A DNA stretch of 64,000 nt. It comes from Lachnospiraceae bacterium. Lineage in GTDB: Bacteria; Bacillota; Clostridia; Lachnospirales; Lachnospiraceae. The translations under genes and the position numbers were made by a program. The notes beneath the pieces are model-generated. The model did no database searches. It saw only the letters and a program-made list of their open reading frames with translations, and had not been told where the DNA came from. Positions 19,437 through 28,134 of the stretch are shown piece after piece (positions within the stretch are counted from its first letter, which is position 1; each line of letters opens with the position of its first letter). The DNA is taken from positions 23,944 through 87,943 of the forward strand of contig SVFE01000001.1 in the NCBI GenBank assembly GCA_015057055.1, in the 5' to 3' direction.

Positions 19437-20434
19437 TGAATAGAAAGAGAAAAGAACGTATCTTATATCCGCAGTGTGAAAATGGCATCTATAGGTATGA
19501 ATACGTAGAAATCGGCGGGATGAAACAATATATTCAAATAAGAGGCAAGGATAAAAGGAATCCGATATTGCTTTTTATCCATGGCGGTCCGGGTGGGTCC
19601 ATGGCCGGTTATGCTCATGTTATGCAGGATTTGTGGGAAGAAAAGTTTACCGTAGTAAATTGGGACCAGAGAAATACCTGTAAGACATACCTTGCAAATA
19701 AGGATAAATCCATGGAGATTGCTAAAACCGGCACCATGGAGGATTACATGGGGGATATCGACGAAATTATCAAATATCTTCATGGCATATACGAATTTGA
19801 AAAGATTATTTTGCTTGGATTTTCCTGGGGGTCTGTAATTGGCTCGGAATATGCAAAGAGGCATCCTGAAAACGTGTACTGTTATATAGGAGTGGGACAG
19901 CTTATCAACTACGCGGAAGGGTTCCGTGTGGTAGGAAAACAGGTGATAGAGCGTGCAGGGCAAAAGAAGAATAAAAAGGATATAGAAAAGATTCATAAAG
20001 TGCTTAATTCGATGCCGGATGGACCGTATATGACTGACGAGTTCATGAAACAGATACAGATTTTTGTCAGAATCAGCAACCAATATTTGTCAGAGAACAG
20101 TAGGAGTTTATCGTGGAAAGATTTTCTGACATCACCGCTTATGGATCGTAAGGCCAGAAAGGCTATGTATGTGCCTCATGAATTGCTGGCCGGGACATTT
20201 AAAACATTGTACGAATTTGATTTTCGAAATGATTTGAATTTTCCGGTACCGGTATATTTTATAACCGGTGAGGAGGATACCGCCTGTCCGCATAGTTTGC
20301 TTAAAGATATTGCAGATGACATCAATGCACCGAAGAAAAAGTTGTTTATTATGGAAAAAGCAGGGCATTGTTGCTTTTATGATAGAAAACAGGAGTTTTA
20401 CAAGCTTTTGCTGGATGTGAGCGATGAGAATTAA
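19436..20434 (+). CDS. Alpha/beta hydrolase, prolyl aminopeptidase (S33)-like
   Basis: HGGPGG oxyanion motif, WDQR, GFSWG nucleophile elbow, GEED and AGH triad positions. Confidence 0.85.
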   Translation: MNRKRKERILYPQCENGIYRYEYVEIGGMKQYIQIRGKDKRNPILLFIHGGPGGSMAGYAHVMQDLWEEKFTVVNWDQRNTCKTYLANKDKSMEIAKTGTMEDYMGDIDEIIKYLHGIYEFEKIILLGFSWGSVIGSEYAKRHPENVYCYIGVGQLINYAEGFRVVGKQVIERAGQKKNKKDIEKIHKVLNSMPDGPYMTDEFMKQIQIFVRISNQYLSENSRSLSWKDFLTSPLMDRKARKAMYVPHELLAGTFKTLYEFDFRNDLNFPVPVYFITGEEDTACPHSLLKDIADDINAPKKKLFIMEKAGHCCFYDRKQEFYKLLLDVSDEN

Positions 20435-20479
20435 GGGGAATGTACACATTCATTTCGATTTTTGGAAGGGATAAAGAGC

Positions 20480-20864
20480 ATGATTGATTTGAAAAATGGC
20501 AGAATTAGAATTGCGGATGATTTAATTATTTATCCGAATTATACATTTGATTTGTTTAAGAAAAGTTCTTTCTATACGAATCAGGATGGCGTTAGAATAA
20601 TAATTTTGGAGAAACAGCAAGTTATCGACGGGAATAAATATATGGCAATGCTTTTCTTTAGAAATAATATATATGTTGTCGCTGGTTTGCTGTGAAGAAC
20701 AGTATTCGGAAGAAAATGAAAAGGAAAGGAAAAAACTGCACGACCGTATACTGGAGAAATATGGTGTTATAGGGAAAGCGGAGTATGCATGGGGAACCGT
20801 TTCGTCAGAATATGACGGACGCAGCAATTGCTGTAGTATTAACTTTGTTTTTTATGGTGAATAA
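20480..20864 (+). pseudogene. Hypothetical gene split by a frameshift in an (AT)4 tract
   Basis: ORFs 20480-20695 and 20673-20864 overlap in different frames; adding one AT at 20667-20674 gives a continuous ...FRNNIYMLSLVCCEE... reading. Confidence 0.65.
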
Positions 20865-20911
20865 TAAGAGAAGCAAATTTTTAGACATCTTTTTATATCG
20901 CTGATAAACCG

Positions 20912-20941
20912 AGCCGATGGGGTTAATCTCATCGGCTTTTT
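20912..20941 (+). terminator. Intrinsic terminator
   Basis: AGCCGATGGG-GTTAAT-CTCATCGGCT then TTTT. Confidence 0.8.
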
Positions 20942-20945
20942 CCGA

Positions 20946-21008
20946 TTCACAACATAAAAAGGTTGTTTCACGCAAAAAAATGTAGCAAAGACACAGACCG
21001 GACGATAT
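20946..21008 (+). promoter_or_regulatory. LytTR-type direct repeats plus sigma28-like promoter (site 1)
   Basis: TTCACAAC (20946) and TTCACGCA (20967) start 21 bp apart; then TAG (20983-85), N16, ACGATAT (21002-08). Confidence 0.6.
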
Positions 21009-21049
21009 ACCTATTGGATAGTATGCTAGTATTTTTGAAAGGACCGGTG

Positions 21050-21643
21050 ATGTTTGTGTCTATGACAATCGGAAATAATATGGGAATCAGTAGTGGTTAC
21101 AAGGTAAGTAAAGCAGGTGGTTATAAAAATGTGCGGGAGTATTCCAATTACTTGTTGGGCAAATACAGTTGCCTGAAACCGGGAAGTAACGTGGCCGTGT
21201 CTGTTACATCAGGAATGCTAAGAAAAGCAATGAGTGATGAGAAAACCGGGCAATGGTTGGAGAGAGAACTTGCCAAAGCACCTGATTATATAAAAGAGGC
21301 ACAGCAGTCTGCCGGTGCTCGCGGGAGTAAACTGTTATCGGTTTCTATAGAGTTTGGAGAAGAGTATACAACTATGTGCACTCTGACAGTTACGGATACA
21401 CCGGGTACGGATGAAGATATTGATAAGTGGCTTGAGAGAGTTGAAGAGAACAGAGAAAAACAAAAGGCGACGGAAAAGAGGAACGAAAAAAGAAGTGCCG
21501 AGAAAAAACTGACAGAGCAGAGAATAGAAGAGTATACTTTCAAAGGACTGGATTTAAAGAGTGTTACCGACAGTTTTATTGCAAAGATGTCTTCGGTACG
21601 TTCTGTAATGCCCAAAGCGTCCGGATTTGACATGAAAGTATAA
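21050..21643 (+). CDS. Uncharacterised protein A, DUF6033-like, ends FDMKV
   Basis: YSNYLLGKY...LRKAMSDEKTGQWLERE aligns by eye with 23952 and 26607; K/E-rich coiled coil; no signal peptide; AAAGGA SD (21062 is an alternative start). Confidence 0.7.
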   Translation: MFVSMTIGNNMGISSGYKVSKAGGYKNVREYSNYLLGKYSCLKPGSNVAVSVTSGMLRKAMSDEKTGQWLERELAKAPDYIKEAQQSAGARGSKLLSVSIEFGEEYTTMCTLTVTDTPGTDEDIDKWLERVEENREKQKATEKRNEKRSAEKKLTEQRIEEYTFKGLDLKSVTDSFIAKMSSVRSVMPKASGFDMKV

Positions 21644-21672
21644 AAGAAATATGAATTGCAAAGGAAGATACC

Positions 21673-22380
21673 ATGCATATAGGAATTTGTGATGATGAAA
21701 AAAACATAAGGGAATTATTAGCCGGTAAAGTGACAAAGCAGTATCCGGATGCCGATATTATATTGTTTTCATCGGGGGAAGAACTACTTTTATCGGACAA
21801 ACAGATAGATATTCTATTTTTGGATATTCAAATGCAAGGTAGAAATGGGATGGAAGCGGCTAGGGAACTTCGTAAGAAGGACAAGGGGGTAATACTTGTT
21901 TTTGTGACCGGAGTGGAGGACTATGTCTTTCAGGCATTTGATGTAGGTGCTTTTCATTACATTGTGAAGCCGGTTGATGATGCGAAGTTTGAAGATGTAC
22001 TTTACAGGGCAGTGTCGGAAGTGAAATCTCAAAAAATGCACGAAAAAGAGCCGGAAGATAAATGTTTGATGATAAATAACGGCGGAGTACACATTAAAGT
22101 GATGATTGAGGATATTGTTTACGCGGAGATATTCAATCGAAAGATAGTTATTCATAAAACGGACGAGACAATTGAGTATTACGGGAAGATGTCTGATCTT
22201 GAAACGTTAGCAGGAGAGAACTTTTTCAGACCGCACAGGGCGTATCTCATCAATTTTAAGTATGTTGAAAAATACGATGCTTCTACAGTTTATCTGGAAA
22301 AAGGAAGTGTTCTTATGGCAAAAGGTAAATTCCCGGAGTTTGTCAAAAGATATATGAAGTATATTCAGCGGAAGGGATAA
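21673..22380 (+). CDS. LytTR-family response regulator (AgrA/VirR-like)
   Basis: Receiver ICDDE...LDIQM...VKP plus LytTR domain FFRPHRAYLIN. Confidence 0.93.
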   Translation: MHIGICDDEKNIRELLAGKVTKQYPDADIILFSSGEELLLSDKQIDILFLDIQMQGRNGMEAARELRKKDKGVILVFVTGVEDYVFQAFDVGAFHYIVKPVDDAKFEDVLYRAVSEVKSQKMHEKEPEDKCLMINNGGVHIKVMIEDIVYAEIFNRKIVIHKTDETIEYYGKMSDLETLAGENFFRPHRAYLINFKYVEKYDASTVYLEKGSVLMAKGKFPEFVKRYMKYIQRKG

Positions 22381-22385
22381 TATTT

Positions 22386-23753
22386 ATGAGTCATATGGAA
22401 ATGTACTGGGCGATAGCCAACCATTCAATATCTATAATTAACATTTTGGTGGAATGCTGGTTGTTTTACCGATTTGTGCAGCCGTTTATGAAAAAAGGGG
22501 CATATTACGCCGGATTAAGTTATTCGGCGACAATGCTGGTTTTTTATTGTGTTCCGCAGGAAATTTATTATCCGTATTTTTTCGCAATTCTTATAGCATG
22601 TGTTACGATGTGCTTGTTGGAAAGAAGAAATATTAAGCAGAAAGTATTTTTGGCAACATGTATGTATCTGTTTCGCTGGGTGGTCTATGGAGTAACATTG
22701 GTACTTAGAGATATACTGTTTGCCCTGTTTATTAATACGCCGTATATGTATACGAGACCGATAAAACAATTATGCGCATATATTGTTGTGGAGACGGTGT
22801 ATTACGCCGTGGCTTTATCGGTAATGTATCTGGTGATTCGATTGATTCACAAAGTGTATATAAATAAAAAAGATGACATTTCCGGTAAAGAATTGTTACT
22901 GCTTTATGCCACTCTGTTAACAGTAATGGTAGGCTATATTACTTTCAATTTCTTTTCTAAGGTATATCTGGAGGACATGGAAGTTTATATCTGGAATGTG
23001 CACCCGGGCTATACTTTTTTGCGGGTAATCTATCAGATTGTTTCGTTTGCGGCAATACTTATCGCTATTGTGATATACCAAAAGATAAAGGAAAAACAAC
23101 GTGAAGATAAGGTTAATATTTTATTGGCAGAGCAGCTGGAAAATACGAAACAGCGTATCAGTGAAGTAGAGAAATTGTACGGAGATATGCGTGCAATGAA
23201 ACATGATATGGGAAATCATATCTCGGTGTTGGAAAACCTAATTATGAAAAATGAAACCGAAGAGGTGGAAAAGTATTTATCCGAGTTAAAAGCATCTTGG
23301 AATGAGAACGGGACAGAAATAAAGACGGGCAATCCTGTCACGGATGTGGTTCTGGCGCAAAAGAGGAGAGAGGCAGAAGAAAAAGGAATCGGGTTTAAAT
23401 GTGAATTCGTTTATCCGACGGATACCAATATCAATGCTTTCGATGTCAGTGTGATTTTAAGCAATGCGCTGGAAAATGCTTTTGGAGGTGCAAGCGGCTG
23501 CGAAAATCCTTATGTTTTGATAAATGCGTATCGTAAGAAAAATGCGTATATGTTGGAAGTGAAAAACAGTATCCTTAAATCGGTAGAGATTGATGGTGAA
23601 ACCGGTTTGCCGGAAACAACGAAGGAAGATAAGGAAAGTCACGGTTTTGGACTTGCCAATATTCGCAAGGTGGCGCAGAAATATTACGGAGACATAGATA
23701 TCCATCAGGATGAAAACAGTTTTACATTGACGGTTATGTTGATGGTTGAATAA
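22386..23753 (+). CDS. AgrC/VirS-like membrane sensor histidine kinase (GHKL)
   Basis: About 7 N-terminal TM helices, H-box KHDMGNH, N-box SNALEN, G-box TTKEDKESHGFGL. Confidence 0.9.
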   Translation: MSHMEMYWAIANHSISIINILVECWLFYRFVQPFMKKGAYYAGLSYSATMLVFYCVPQEIYYPYFFAILIACVTMCLLERRNIKQKVFLATCMYLFRWVVYGVTLVLRDILFALFINTPYMYTRPIKQLCAYIVVETVYYAVALSVMYLVIRLIHKVYINKKDDISGKELLLLYATLLTVMVGYITFNFFSKVYLEDMEVYIWNVHPGYTFLRVIYQIVSFAAILIAIVIYQKIKEKQREDKVNILLAEQLENTKQRISEVEKLYGDMRAMKHDMGNHISVLENLIMKNETEEVEKYLSELKASWNENGTEIKTGNPVTDVVLAQKRREAEEKGIGFKCEFVYPTDTNINAFDVSVILSNALENAFGGASGCENPYVLINAYRKKNAYMLEVKNSILKSVEIDGETGLPETTKEDKESHGFGLANIRKVAQKYYGDIDIHQDENSFTLTVMLMVE

Positions 23754-23761
23754 GAAATATG

Positions 23762-23802
23762 AGACACAGTCTGTACAAAAAAGTGTGGATTGTGTCTTTT
23801 TT
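23762..23802 (+). terminator. Intrinsic terminator after the histidine kinase
   Basis: AGACACAGTCTGTAC-AAAAAA-GTGTGGATTGTGTCT (with G-U pairs) then a T run. Confidence 0.75.
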
Positions 23803-23808
23803 ATTTGC

Positions 23809-23883
23809 TTCACAACAGAAAAAGGTCGGTTCACAACAAGTCTATTTAGTATGAAGTTTACTATTCCGAAATAGGAAGTAGCA
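23809..23883 (+). promoter_or_regulatory. LytTR-type direct repeats plus sigma28-like promoter (site 2)
   Basis: TTCACAAC at 23809 and 23830 (21-bp period); TAG (23847-49), N16, CCGAAAT (23866-72); AAGTAGCA at 23876. Confidence 0.65.
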
Positions 23884-23951
23884 GAAGTGTTTGCATATGG
23901 AGAAACGGATTTCTGAACAAAAAGCAAGGAGGAAAACAAGGAGGTTTACCG

Positions 23952-24917
23952 ATGTCAATTATTTCGAATGTAAGTGGTAGTGGACTAAATGCTCAAAATG
24001 CACATAGGCTGAAAGATATCCAAAGGGCAGAAGGAGCAGAAGAAAATGCAAAAAAACGGATGGAAAGAAATCGTGAAAAAGAGGGTGTGAGTTACGAAAA
24101 AACGATTTCCGATTCTGTAACAGCAGGACTTGCGTTTATGCAGGGCTTGGAAAAACAGTTTGGCGGTACAAAGTTCTTTGTTGGAACAGTAAGTTATGGA
24201 CAGACTTATGGTAATTCTATGGATACGAATTTTGTGGTTAATCCCCAATTTCTTGATAAGTTGGGGACTGATGAAGCGGTCAGAAAACAGTTTGAAGAAG
24301 ACGTCAAATATCTGACAGATTTTTCTGAAAGGTTTCGAAAACAGCAACTTGCATCTGGGCGTGAGATTGTAAATCAGGGGTGGTTTTGTGATGAGAATGG
24401 TAATTGGGGTGGCTGGTCGGTTGGCCGACCAATCAATCAAAACTCTGTTTTGCAGGATATGACAGATAGTGCCGAGAAAATTCGGAAGGAAAAGTTTGTG
24501 GAGCGAGAAAAAGCGGAAGCAGAATTGAAAGAACATTTTGGAGACCGTTTCAAAGGATTTAGTGTGAAATGGGCAGAAGATGATAAAACCGGGGAATCGG
24601 AAGGAACAAAAGACAGGGAAGCTTCTTCCGATGAAGAAAGTGAGACCGTATCAGGTAAAGTTGGTGTAAATGTCGGCAAGACTGCAAGAAAAATTTCGGC
24701 GGCAAAGACAAAGGAACAGTTGCGGATGGTGATGGCTGAAATTAAAAGCGATGCCCAGGTCGTGAAAGCAGGAATTGAAAAGGGTTGGTGCGACGAGACA
24801 GAGTTGGACAAAGTGGAGATGCTTATGTCTATGGCGCAGAATCGCATGGGACAAGTGGAAGATAGAGAGGCAACGCCGGAAGAAGAGAGCATGTTTACTC
24901 TGGCTTCATTATTATAA
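23952..24917 (+). CDS. Uncharacterised protein B, DUF6033-like with an extra C-terminal helical domain
   Basis: FMQGLEKQF...NPQFLDKLGTDEAVRKQFEED...GWFCDENG core; AAGGAGG SD. Confidence 0.75.
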   Translation: MSIISNVSGSGLNAQNAHRLKDIQRAEGAEENAKKRMERNREKEGVSYEKTISDSVTAGLAFMQGLEKQFGGTKFFVGTVSYGQTYGNSMDTNFVVNPQFLDKLGTDEAVRKQFEEDVKYLTDFSERFRKQQLASGREIVNQGWFCDENGNWGGWSVGRPINQNSVLQDMTDSAEKIRKEKFVEREKAEAELKEHFGDRFKGFSVKWAEDDKTGESEGTKDREASSDEESETVSGKVGVNVGKTARKISAAKTKEQLRMVMAEIKSDAQVVKAGIEKGWCDETELDKVEMLMSMAQNRMGQVEDREATPEEESMFTLASLL

Positions 24918-24945
24918 TTTGATAGGAAAAAGGAGGATGTTTCGT

Positions 24946-25731
24946 ATGAAAATTAACGGTATAGACGGAATGAACACTTCAATCAAAGGGATGAATATGT
25001 TGCAATCAAATGATTCTGTCAGTAAAAATATTCAGAATAAAATTGCCAATGCGCAGAAACAGTTGCAGGATCTCTCTTCAAACAAAGAGATGAGTATTGA
25101 AGAAAAAATGAAAAAAAGACAGGAAATACAACAACAAATTGCAGATTTGAATAGCCAACTAAGACAACATCAAATCACCCAAAGAAAAGAGCAACAGGCA
25201 AAAGAAACTTCTATGAATGATATGCTTGGCGCAAGTAAGCAGACTGCTTCCGGAACAGGAAAACGAACCGCAGGTTTATCAAGGGCAAATATGAAAGCTA
25301 TGATTTCTGCGGATTCTGCAATGGCGCAGGCAAAGATACAAGGCAGCGTAGCGGGGCAAATGGAAGGTAAAGCCGGTGTATTGGAAACAGAAATCAAGTT
25401 GGACGCTGCCCGGGGAGTCGACGTGGAAAAAAAGAAAGAGGAACTGGCAGAAGTAGAACAGAAGGCAACTGCGGCAGAGACTGCGCAGCTGAGTACTTTA
25501 GCAGATGCCAATAAGGAACTGGAAGCGGCAACGAAGGAAGAACGGCAGACAAAGCGTGTCGACGAAAAGAATACGAAGGAAGAAAAGACAGAAAATAAGA
25601 TTAGTGTGGATGCTATTGATAATTCGGATGTTGACAATGTGATAAATGAAAATGGTACGGAAATGACAGAAACCGAGGAGCCTCTTTCAAAGGAAACAAC
25701 TTCGTCCGTGCATGTTGATGTTAGAGTATAG
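24946..25731 (+). CDS. FlxA-like coiled-coil protein C, ends VDVRV
   Basis: IQNKIANAQKQLQDLS...KMKKRQEIQQQIADLNSQL pattern typical of FlxA-like proteins; AGGAGG SD before ATG 24946. Confidence 0.7.
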   Translation: MKINGIDGMNTSIKGMNMLQSNDSVSKNIQNKIANAQKQLQDLSSNKEMSIEEKMKKRQEIQQQIADLNSQLRQHQITQRKEQQAKETSMNDMLGASKQTASGTGKRTAGLSRANMKAMISADSAMAQAKIQGSVAGQMEGKAGVLETEIKLDAARGVDVEKKKEELAEVEQKATAAETAQLSTLADANKELEAATKEERQTKRVDEKNTKEEKTENKISVDAIDNSDVDNVINENGTEMTETEEPLSKETTSSVHVDVRV

Positions 25732-25743
25732 GAGGAGATTGCG

Positions 25744-26493
25744 ATGGCAGGAATAAATAAATTTAATCAATATATGAATCTGTATAATTCAGAGGATTAT
25801 TCGTTGTTTTCGGGAGGTGCGCAGTTGCCGTCAATGAGCAGCTCCTATAGCCTTTCGGATTATGCTGCAATAAAGAACGGTAGTTATGGCAAAGCGTTAA
25901 AAGCGTATTATAAAAAAATGGATGCAGAGAAATTATCTTTCGGAGCAGATTCCGCACAAAAGAATTTGCTTATGAAATCCGGCGCCGATGCTTTGGAGAA
26001 ATCTGCGGAGGCTCTAAAAAAGGATACTCTTTGGGAGAAGAAGGAAACCCGGGAAAAAGATGAAGCAACGGGAGAAGAAACTGTAGTGCATGATTATGAC
26101 CGGGATGCTATTGCCAAAGCGGTAAAAACTTTTGTTGAGGATTATAATGATGCCGTGGAACAGGCCGGTGATTCCGATTCAAAAGAGGTATTAAGAAATG
26201 CAATGTGGATGACCGATACTACGGATGCAAACAAAAAGGTCCTTGCAAAAATCGGGATTGAAGTAGGAAAGGGAAATAAGCTGGAGTTGGATGAAGAAAC
26301 CCTCAGAAAGGCGGATATCGGCACGCTCAAAATGCTTTTTACAGGCTATAATTCTTTTGCAGATAAGGTATCCATGAAAGCAAGAAGTATTTCTGCTGCA
26401 TCATCAAAGGCCGGCGTTACTTATACGAGTGACGGAAAGTATAATGACGTAGTGTCGAAACTTGTATCAAAGAAAGTGAACAAAGAAGTATAA
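25744..26493 (+). CDS. Uncharacterised protein D resembling the FliD C-terminal domain
   Basis: AVKTFVEDYN...LAKIGIEV...LELDEETL...LKMLFTG resembles FliD_C; GGAGGAG SD. Confidence 0.6.
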   Translation: MAGINKFNQYMNLYNSEDYSLFSGGAQLPSMSSSYSLSDYAAIKNGSYGKALKAYYKKMDAEKLSFGADSAQKNLLMKSGADALEKSAEALKKDTLWEKKETREKDEATGEETVVHDYDRDAIAKAVKTFVEDYNDAVEQAGDSDSKEVLRNAMWMTDTTDANKKVLAKIGIEVGKGNKLELDEETLRKADIGTLKMLFTGYNSFADKVSMKARSISAASSKAGVTYTSDGKYNDVVSKLVSKKVNKEV

Positions 26494-26606: not shown

Positions 26607-27380
26607 ATGGATGTTGGTATAATGAATAGCAGTATTCATGCATCGTCAGAGGCATATGCTGCGAAAGAAGCAAAGCAAACGAAAGAGACAAAGCCGGCGA
26701 AAGAAAACAAACCTACCGAGGAAGTTAAAAAATACGGTGTTTCCGGTAGGACAGTAGGGCAACCGAAACTTAGTGAAAATGCAAAGAAGTATTATGAGGA
26801 ATTAAAGTCTAAATTTCAAAATATGGATTTTATTCTGGTGAGCAAGGATATGAAGGAAATGGCCAAAGCGAATGCCGGAAGTTTTGCTAATCCTCATAAA
26901 ATGGTTGTTTTGATTGACGAAGAAAAAATTGAACGTATGGCGACGGACGAGCAGTATCGCAAGCAATACGAAGGCATTATTGCTTCCGCGGGAAACAAAT
27001 TACCGCAGCTACAAAAAACGCTGGAAAAATCCGGGAAGGTGAAAGCCTTCGGCATGCAGATTAATGACAATGGAGCAGCTTCGTTTTTTGCCGTGATGGA
27101 TAACGCATTTAAGTCCCAGGCCAAACGATTGGAAAAACAAAGAGCCGAGAAAAAAGAAGAAAAGAAAGCGGCAGAGAAAAAAGCGGAGAAAGCAAAACGG
27201 GAGGAACAACTTAAGGAGAAACGCCTTTCGAAAGGCGAAGAATCGGAAACGGTAATATATGCAGATTCGTTCGAAGAGTTAAAACTGAAAGTAGAGGATT
27301 ATATTTTTGAACATATGGCGGACACCGTAAAGACGGATTCTGAAAGATATCTTGGAACGCATATCGATTTCAAGGGTTAG
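26607..27380 (+). CDS. Uncharacterised protein E, DUF6033-like, ends IDFKG
   Basis: YYEELKSKF...IDEEKIERMATDEQYRKQYEG...FGMQINDNG core plus K/E/A coiled coil. Confidence 0.75.
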   Translation: MDVGIMNSSIHASSEAYAAKEAKQTKETKPAKENKPTEEVKKYGVSGRTVGQPKLSENAKKYYEELKSKFQNMDFILVSKDMKEMAKANAGSFANPHKMVVLIDEEKIERMATDEQYRKQYEGIIASAGNKLPQLQKTLEKSGKVKAFGMQINDNGAASFFAVMDNAFKSQAKRLEKQRAEKKEEKKAAEKKAEKAKREEQLKEKRLSKGEESETVIYADSFEELKLKVEDYIFEHMADTVKTDSERYLGTHIDFKG

Positions 27381-27390
27381 GAGGCACGTC

Positions 27391-28134
27391 ATGATTACGG
27401 GAACCATCTATAATGCGGGGAAAATGCTGGAAATGACACAAAAGTGGGAGCAAAAGAAAGCATCCGGTAATATCCTCGGAAAAGAGAAAAAGGAATTGTC
27501 ACCGGAAGAACAACAACTCAAAATGTATCAGGAACAGCTTGCGAGTATGCGGGAGGGAAACGAAGTCAGTGCCATATATGCAAAACTTCAAAGCGGTCAG
27601 GAACTGAGTCCGGAAGAAGAGGGAATCCTTCGTGAGAGAGACCCTAAACTGTACATGGAGTATAAGGCGGATCGAATGGAACAGGAAGCCTACGAGAAAG
27701 AGTTGAAAAATTGTAAGACAAAGGAAGAAGCGGAAAAACTTCATGTAAACCGAATGAACGGCAAGCTGTCTGAATTAAAATCAATTGTAAATAATCCGAA
27801 TATCCCTAAAAGTGAAAAAATAAAAGAGTCACAGAGAATTCTGGGAGACACTACGAAAACGGCGCAGATTTTTCAGATATTTACAAAAAGTGAGGAGTTT
27901 AAGAAACTGCCCACGGAAGAAGAAGCGGCGGAAAACAGCCGGGAAGAGGCGAATCTGCAAGAAGAGCAACCGCCGGTAGAAACGGATGAATATGCAGAGG
28001 TTACTTCAGATGGTGCTTCAGGTAGTGATAACGATAATAACATTTCGACGGAGGTATTGAAAGAAATGCTTGCGTTGGAGAAAAAGCATTTTGGAGAATT
28101 AAAAAAGACGGTAAAAATTGATGTCACAATCTAA
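27391..28134 (+). CDS. Uncharacterised coiled-coil protein F, ends IDVTI
   Basis: GGAGG SD overlapping the upstream stop; repeated ELSPEE; acidic tail. Confidence 0.7.
   Translation: MITGTIYNAGKMLEMTQKWEQKKASGNILGKEKKELSPEEQQLKMYQEQLASMREGNEVSAIYAKLQSGQELSPEEEGILRERDPKLYMEYKADRMEQEAYEKELKNCKTKEEAEKLHVNRMNGKLSELKSIVNNPNIPKSEKIKESQRILGDTTKTAQIFQIFTKSEEFKKLPTEEEAAENSREEANLQEEQPPVETDEYAEVTSDGASGSDNDNNISTEVLKEMLALEKKHFGELKKTVKIDVTI

Follow-up and report, generated by a model that had tools for sequence, protein, structure and literature searches.

What would a direct repeat do that stands twice in a short stretch of a bacterial chromosome, once on either side of the genes of a two-component system? 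The question is raised by a locus in the window, by which we mean the whole stretch of 64,000 nucleotides from a Lachnospiraceae bacterium that was analysed here. An earlier note on this DNA had described a second copy of a direct repeat ahead of an operon of genes B, C and D, had matched it to a first copy, and had held that the two copies flank the two-component genes and define a small regulon. The second copy is indeed present at 23809-23838. The two sites, and the terminators that precede them, are the following.

20911-20943, + strand: terminator hairpin with an 11-bp stem (hairpin 20911-20938, -17.9 kcal/mol, z -2.9) and a U-run, which ends the upstream gene directly 5' of site 1.
20946-20975, + strand: site 1, made of TTCACAACA (20946-20954), the 12-nt spacer TAAAAAGGTTGT (20955-20966) and TTCACGCAA (20967-20975).
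23761-23806, + strand: terminator hairpin with a 16-bp stem (hairpin 23761-23798, -19.3 kcal/mol, z -5.5) and a U-run, which ends the kinase gene.
23809-23838, + strand: site 2, made of TTCACAACA (23809-23817), the 12-nt spacer GAAAAAGGTCGG (23818-23829) and TTCACAACA (23830-23838).

In site 2 both direct repeats are perfect, with 12 nt between them. The repeat had been described with a unit of eight nucleotides; it is real, but its unit is nine, as the sequence originally noted spans 23809-23837 and the next A completes the second repeat. Sites 1 and 2 are identical at 24 of their 30 positions, and a repeat search aligns 20937-20971 to 23800-23834 (80% identity), that is, two similar stretches of about 35 nt lying 2863 nt apart. 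The likeness that the earlier note had seen in both half-sites stands for the first half-site and for the A-rich part of the spacer, which are the same in the two copies, but not for the second half-site of site 1, which is weak (6/9 matching). The common layout of terminator, repeat and TAG-N16-MCGAWAT holds at both sites: TAG lies at 20983-20985 and 23847-23849, and 16 nt past it come ACGATAT (21002-21008) at site 1 and CCGAAAT (23866-23872) at site 2. The TAG itself fared less well as a part of the motif, being kept among relatives only within the TTTA(G/T) of one promoter type, that of flxA-like genes. The terminators isolate each of the two promoters. No Rfam family matched within 20400-24400.

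The genes between and after the sites all lie on the same strand.

21050-21643 (start 21050 or 21062), + strand: gene A, DUF6033 protein (Pfam DUF6033, 3.8e-9).
21673-22380, + strand: response regulator (RR) with receiver and LytTR domains (Pfam Response_reg, 8.4e-17, 61.8 bits; LytTR, 2.7e-14, 53.6 bits with a cutoff of 22.6).
22386-23753, + strand: sensor histidine kinase (HK) of the AgrC/ComD type (Pfam HATPase_c_5, 5.6e-24, 84.4 bits).
23952-24917, + strand: gene B, DUF6033 protein, the first gene after site 2 (Pfam DUF6033, 1.4e-8).
24937-25731, + strand: gene C, FlxA-like protein (Pfam FlxA, 2.9e-16).
25744-26493, + strand: gene D, FliD_C-like protein (Pfam FliD_C, 3.8e-8).
26607-27380, + strand: gene E, DUF6033 protein with a full-length match (Pfam DUF6033, 5.7e-76).
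27391-28134, + strand: gene F, charged protein without a Pfam or NCBIfam family.

The best solved relatives of the RR are ComE (4cbv, E 2.7e-10) and, over the LytTR domain only, the LytTR domain of AgrA (3bs1, E 1.8e-5). It has 2668 homologues at E<=1e-20. Since its scores fall far under the NCBIfam equivalog cutoffs of BtsR (77 bits against 246), LytR (62 against 375) and AgrA (52 against 400), it belongs to an unnamed group of the LytTR family. The kinase, with domains of the HPK10 type, carries six to seven hydrophobic segments within residues 1-236, an H-box at H273 and an HDMGN motif. Pfam domains of pheromone precursors or of their processing and export proteins (AgrD/AgrB, ComC/ComAB) were found in none of the products A to F, and no such gene is conserved next to the RR-HK pair across species, so the input signal may be encoded elsewhere.

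An AAGGAGG ribosome-binding site precedes the ATG of gene B. Gene F lies on the strand of B to E after a short gap and is probably the last gene of a B-F operon. The products A to F are about 30% charged, with no hydrophobic segment and no signal peptide, and none of them matched an NCBIfam family. Gene D is syntenic in 11 of the related loci (L003-L009, L025, L034, L041 and L170), and its protein matched none of the PDB sequences. The DUF6033 protein E has 3259 homologues in the protein collection. In its AlphaFold model (mean pLDDT 65) an alpha/beta core at residues ~45-165, with pLDDT 70-90, leads into a long helical region rich in charged residues; a Foldseek search of this model against the PDB gave no match (best E = 4).

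Several features of the gene products were observed in passing. A C-terminal motif of the form hydrophobic-D-hydrophobic-(K/R/T/S)-hydrophobic is common to otherwise unrelated families, namely the FlxA-like and DUF6033 proteins, protein F and a family of about 200 aa that we call 'KSTQDKL'; examples are VDVRV, FDMKV, IDFKG, IDVTI, PIDIRL and VDVKL. Of the 60 distinct products of first ORFs that follow a site (L051-L167), 44 have it, and in the window it is seen at the ends of genes A (21620-21643), C (25708-25731), E (27357-27380) and F (28111-28134), where protein F ends in I-D-V-T-I, kindred to the C-termini of the other products. It could be a tag for sorting, assembly or docking. At their N-termini, FlxA-like proteins (24946-24990 in the window; L051-L167) begin M(M)(R/K)ING(F/I), reminiscent of the flagellin N-terminus MRINHN. 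Protein B (23952-24010) begins MSIISNVSGSGLNAQ, which brings to mind the N-terminal SGL-A motif of flagellar axial proteins. Upstream of site 1, two small ORFs that overlap in different frames (20480-20695 and 20673-20864) look like a gene of about 130 aa that a frameshift has divided; L001, another assembly of the same species, shows this division too, and the first part has no Pfam family.

What, then, could bind the repeats? Response regulators of the LytTR family dimerise on 9-bp direct repeats lying 12 bp apart (PMC2766830), and the sites of AgrA are found immediately 5' of promoters whose spacing is poor or whose core is defective, one of them driving the operon of AgrA itself (PMC4227749). 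At our locus a LytTR regulator is encoded, the repeats have the 9+12+9 form, and their placement is fixed 5' of the inferred promoters, including that of the RR itself. It is very probable that sites 1 and 2 are operators of the LytTR RR encoded between them, and that the RR would activate A-RR-HK from the first and B-C-D-E-F from the second, a prediction drawn from sequence. We hypothesize that the AgrC-like membrane kinase senses a signal and phosphorylates the RR, a dimer of which would bind head-to-tail to two TTYACARCA repeats whose starts are 21 nt apart, the length of two helical turns. Bending of the DNA would probably be aided by the conserved A-tract of the 12-nt spacer. The promoter-proximal repeat ends about 8 nt 5' of a weak -35-like position and starts 36-37 nt 5' of CCGA(T/A)A, and the bound RR would there recruit RNA polymerase to a promoter without a good -35. 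By driving geneA-RR-HK, site 1 would provide positive autoregulation, while site 2 would drive the B-C-D-E-F operon with its DUF6033, FlxA-like and FliD_C-like proteins.

The arrangement was followed among relatives by a search with the RR protein, taking one genome per species. This yielded 49 loci, mostly from Lachnospiraceae MAGs, with Acetatifactor, Agathobacter, Butyrivibrio and Lachnoclostridium as named genera, and also Criibacterium bergeronii (45% identity). Almost all loci L002-L045, whose RRs are 44-88% identical to ours, carry two sites on the coding strand, one about 100 nt 5' of the RR start and the other past the kinase gene, before a FlxA-like or DUF6033 gene, so that, of some 44 orthologous loci, almost every one shows the two-site arrangement. 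Orthologues of site 2 precede an flxA-type operon in 37 loci; those of site 1 are found in L001, L002, L045 and L067. The claim that the sites flank the two-component genes and define a small regulon is thus borne out by about 44 loci and, as described below, by metagenome sites that are mostly promoters of RR or FlxA-like/DUF6033 genes.

The logo of 72 non-redundant sites reads TTcACAaCA, g/t-AAAAAgG-n-cGt, TTcACAaCAt. Past it the DNA diverges until an invariant CCGA(T/A)A, whose CGA is offset from the first repeat by 57-59 nt in 75 of 78 promoters, and by exactly 58 in 60 of the 78. From the site to the next start codon there are about 95-140 nt. Behind the second site, an FlxA-like gene follows in nearly all of the distant loci (L011-L043), and DUF6033, FlxA-like and FliD_C-like genes follow in the closest relatives. 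Where genes have been inserted after the kinase (L017, L021, L022, L025 and L042), the site stays directly 5' of the FlxA-like gene. As the other flanking genes vary by species, the conserved unit can be written promoter-RR-HK plus promoter-flxA-like, with or without DUF6033 and FliD_C. The motif is absent at L046-L049, where the regulators are LytTR proteins of 26-33% identity.

In most relatives the first site lies directly 5' of the RR; a DUF6033 gene stands between them only in the window, L001, L002 and L045. Here the gap from gene A to the RR is 29 nt and holds neither a site nor a terminator, and gene A is probably the first gene of an A-RR-HK operon in this lineage. Three sites are present in L067 (1440, 3131 and 5368, minus strand) and in L123 (1238, 7638 and 9880), the extra one lying 5' of a DUF6033 gene upstream of the RR promoter. 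Site 1 shares with this extra promoter a CGA offset of 57 and a similar sequence after CGA; judged by that, its counterpart by descent appears to be the extra DUF6033 promoter and not the one that usually lies next to the RR. Gene A has likely turned into the first gene of the operon, as site 1 resembles the extra promoter of the three-site loci. A third site was also observed in L017 (position 210), before a gene of the 'KSTQDKL' family (about 200 aa).

When a metagenome collection was scanned with the DNA motif alone, at least 120 loci were recovered and re-scored at a threshold of at least 18 bits. Among the matches listed, 160 sites reached it, and 135 of them had CGA at an offset of 56-60. 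Behind these 135 sites, again among the matches listed, the first gene was distributed as follows.

RR orthologue: 55 sites.
FlxA-like gene: 55 sites.
DUF6033 gene: 3 sites.
Other gene: 7 sites.
No callable ORF: 15 sites, mostly at contig ends.

Among the matches listed, the scan was therefore nearly restricted to promoters of RR or FlxA-like/DUF6033 genes; the 'other' genes included a recurring family of about 200 aa, which also follows the third site of L017, and the 25 sites without CGA stood in unrelated DNA and look like chance matches. In one human-gut contig (L142, position 3796) the first called ORF behind an flxA-type site is acetate-kinase-like and lies 190 nt downstream; the target gene may have been deleted there, or a FlxA-like gene may have been missed by ORF calling.

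The spacer deserves separate mention. Across orthologous sites, its sequence G/T-AAAAAGG-N-CGN is conserved almost as strongly as the half-sites. Such conservation of a spacer A-tract is unusual among LytTR operators, and it may reflect an intrinsic bend or contact with a second factor. It is also the observation, together with the further LytTR regulators encoded nearby in L014, L021, L047 and L048, that would speak for a real site bound by some other protein, be it another LytTR RR or an A-tract factor, with the two-component system as a mere target. We regard this as highly improbable. The motif accompanies the orthologue group of this RR in every context examined and is missing beside the more distant LytTR regulators. 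Moreover, 9+12+9 is precisely the geometry known from the LytTR family, in which autoregulatory sites 5' of the regulator's own gene are the rule.

If the RR is the binding protein, it could in principle repress the promoters, or activate one and repress the other. The direction of regulation is unreadable from sequence, and for AgrA, repression has been reported at one site that lies 3' of a promoter (PMC4227749). Here, however, both sites lie upstream of the -35 position, in the same placement as at AgrA- and SilA-activated promoters, and the combination of no good -35 with a non-canonical -10 is a typical mark of activator dependence. Repression is on these grounds highly improbable, and activation by the RR is the reading that we retain.

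A purely structural origin of the two copies, as ends of a mobile cassette, recombination sites or a recent local duplication without a regulatory role, fits the similar stretches of about 35 nt around a two-gene unit and the flanking genes that vary between species, but it has next to no probability: the likeness is confined to motif positions, with unrelated DNA on either side and past the second repeat, the distances to the -10 and to the start codon are fixed in dozens of species, it is the flxA-like gene and not the kinase that the second copy accompanies when the two are separated, and no integrase or transposase is conserved nearby.

Chance was assessed with a 30-nt weight matrix trained on other species' sites only, with which both strands of the window were scored. 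Site 2 obtained 43.9 bits and site 1 35.5 bits, the next best position in 64 kb only 8.2, and none of 200 first-order Markov simulations of the window went above 21.4 bits. The exact site pattern occurs once in the window and was found 0 times in 100 shuffles. The weight-matrix scan that the earlier note had suggested was in this way run on the window and on relatives; only the two sites stand out in the 64 kb, and the statement that two such copies are unlikely to be accidental proved right. A lone direct repeat proves little, because in 64 kb about one 8-mer is expected to recur at any given spacing, such as the 21-nt period seen here, but a chance likeness of the pair in A/T-rich intergenic DNA can practically be dismissed, as the scores lie far beyond the simulated maximum and the sites are kept in some 44 loci from genomes and in over 100 contigs from metagenomes.

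Which RNA polymerase would read these promoters? The core elements are the following.

21001-21008, + strand: -10-like element of the site 1 promoter, GACGATAT, with the C of CGA at offset 57.
23845-23849, + strand: TTTAG, a weakly conserved -35-like element of the flxA type, which contains TAG (consensus gTTtA.T at -23..-17 from the C of CGA).
23865-23872, + strand: -10-like element of the site 2 promoter, TCCGAAAT, with the C of CGA (23867) at offset 58.

As far as can be read from the DNA, neither the site 1 nor the site 2 promoter has a good -35. The -35-like consensus was taken from 34 non-redundant promoters aligned on CGA. Two types of promoter are seen. Regulator-type promoters have the consensus tCCGATAtAat and no conserved -35, and CCGATATAAT, the sequence found in many RR promoters, includes a perfect TATAAT of sigma-A as well. 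In flxA-type promoters gTTtA.T is followed by 15 nt, by ttCCGAAA.Aa and then by a conserved aagTaagaa, within which transcription would start. The information content comes close to its maximum over CCGA(T/A)A and falls after it, to about 0.4 bit where the T-7 of sigma-A would be. This profile misfits a sigma-A -10 and fits the -10 of a composite sigma-28/SigD promoter.

The SigD consensus is TAAA-N15-GCCGATAT (PMC5200910). In E. coli, flxA is FliA-dependent, its promoter is given as TAAAGATTTTTTTGTGCATGCCGATAGT in FliA ChIP data, and GCCGAAATA is among the FliA-bound sites (PMC4183435). The -10 element of sigma-28, GCCGATAA/T, is represented in the window by GACGATAT at site 1 and TCCGAAAT at site 2. 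Its -35, a TAAA about 15 nt 5' of the -10 octamer, is absent, GTAG and TTAG standing there in the window; the TTtA of flxA-type promoters matches TAAA at T and at the third-base A only, in the same register (PMC4183435). In the window, TAAA-N14-16-CCGATA and TCCGAWAT were matched in coding sequence only. A flagellin search of 1.5 Mb of the relatives' loci returned a single gene fragment, in L121. The carrier Criibacterium bergeronii has been described as motile (PMC8375425). Reading of the promoters by a sigma-28-type holoenzyme is accordingly put forward as tentative, being suggested by the -10 profile and somewhat less likely to hold than to fail. It is tempting to propose, further, that the LytTR regulator takes the place of the absent -35 at CCGA(T/A)A promoters read by sigma-28/SigD, and that the products are new flagellar-export substrates or accessory structures of motile gut Lachnospiraceae and Peptostreptococcaceae; as a whole this proposal is doubtful, and we consider it unlikely. 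If true, a two-component system that senses a peptide or the envelope would gate a promoter of the sigma-28 class.

Two other readings of the promoter region were discarded. An ECF-type promoter, with AAC of the repeat as -35 and CGA as -10, would have a spacing of 29 nt, which is too long. A third half-site at TTCCGATAT would lie 34 nt from repeat 2, which is not a multiple of 10.5, and matches at 4/9 only. Three public runs labelled as RNA contain parts of the locus as short unitigs that include untranscribed promoter and terminator and indicate presence only; they are uninformative on start sites, since the unitigs contain the promoter DNA itself. In the metatranscriptome assemblies of two runs (X25 and X26) the operator region 23804-23859 was seen at raised k-mer depth, which is likely due to DNA carry-over and to a motif common to several species in the sample.

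The module of RR, kinase and FlxA-like protein with both of its promoters recurs in gut Lachnospiraceae of humans, ruminants and mice, and is also carried by a motile vaginal Peptostreptococcaceae isolate. A search of the literature returned no paper on DUF6033, on FlxA-like proteins or on LytTR systems of Lachnospiraceae. The motif could serve as a handle for the study of this system, offering a defined operator and a compact predicted regulon. If the sigma-28-like -10 is real, these would be unusual activator-dependent promoters of the sigma-28 class, and several domains of unknown function would be linked with the flagellar regulon in commensals that are abundant and whose flagellar products are important for immune recognition by the host.

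Compared with the sigma-28 (FliA/SigD) promoters, TAAA-N15-GCCGATAT/A, the elements TCCGATAT and TCCGAAAT match at 6-7 of 8 positions, the information peaks on CCGAWA, a weak TTtA stands in the register of TAAA, and FlxA and FliD_C domains are encoded downstream, as at the FliA-dependent flxA of E. coli (PMC5200910, PMC4183435). The differences are the lack of a TAAA -35 and the upstream activator site, which is unusual for sigma-28; an extended -10 of sigma-A is also possible.

Compared with S. aureus agr P2/P3, the locus differs in its half-site, TTYACARCA here and ACAGTTAAG for AgrA. The two systems are alike in their REC+LytTR response regulator and multi-pass HPK10-type kinase (PMC4227749, PMC2766830), in the two 9-bp direct repeats lying 12 bp apart and 5' of defective core promoters, and in having one site for the own operon and one for an effector transcript. 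Nevertheless, agrB and agrD are absent from the locus here, the identity of the RR to AgrA is low (E 1.8e-5, LytTR domain only), and the AgrA promoters are divergent, whereas those described here are in tandem with the two-component genes between them. If the start lies about 12 nt after CGA, the centre of the proximal repeat would be at about -47, compared with about -60 reported for AgrA, and the -10 is CCGAWA instead of sigma-A-like.

In the ComE boxes and the SilA/BlpR sites of streptococci, direct repeats likewise have a period of 21 bp and lie 5' of promoters without a -35 (PMC2766830), the regulons too are small, with the operon of the regulator among their members, and ComE is the best solved relative of the RR. 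Unlike in those systems, neither a pheromone gene nor an ABC exporter is present here, the targets are charged proteins of 190-320 aa instead of bacteriocins or competence genes, and the spacer has a conserved A5GG tract.

VirS/VirR of C. perfringens also pairs a clostridial LytTR response regulator with an AgrC-like kinase and has imperfect direct repeats directly 5' of its target promoters, while the VirR boxes differ from our sites in sequence and length. The peptide signal of VirS/VirR is encoded elsewhere in the genome, and the VirR regulon consists of toxins and regulatory RNAs. Set beside these systems, the kind of operator is well known; the two-component system, its regulon and the -10 element are the uncharacterised or unusual addition.
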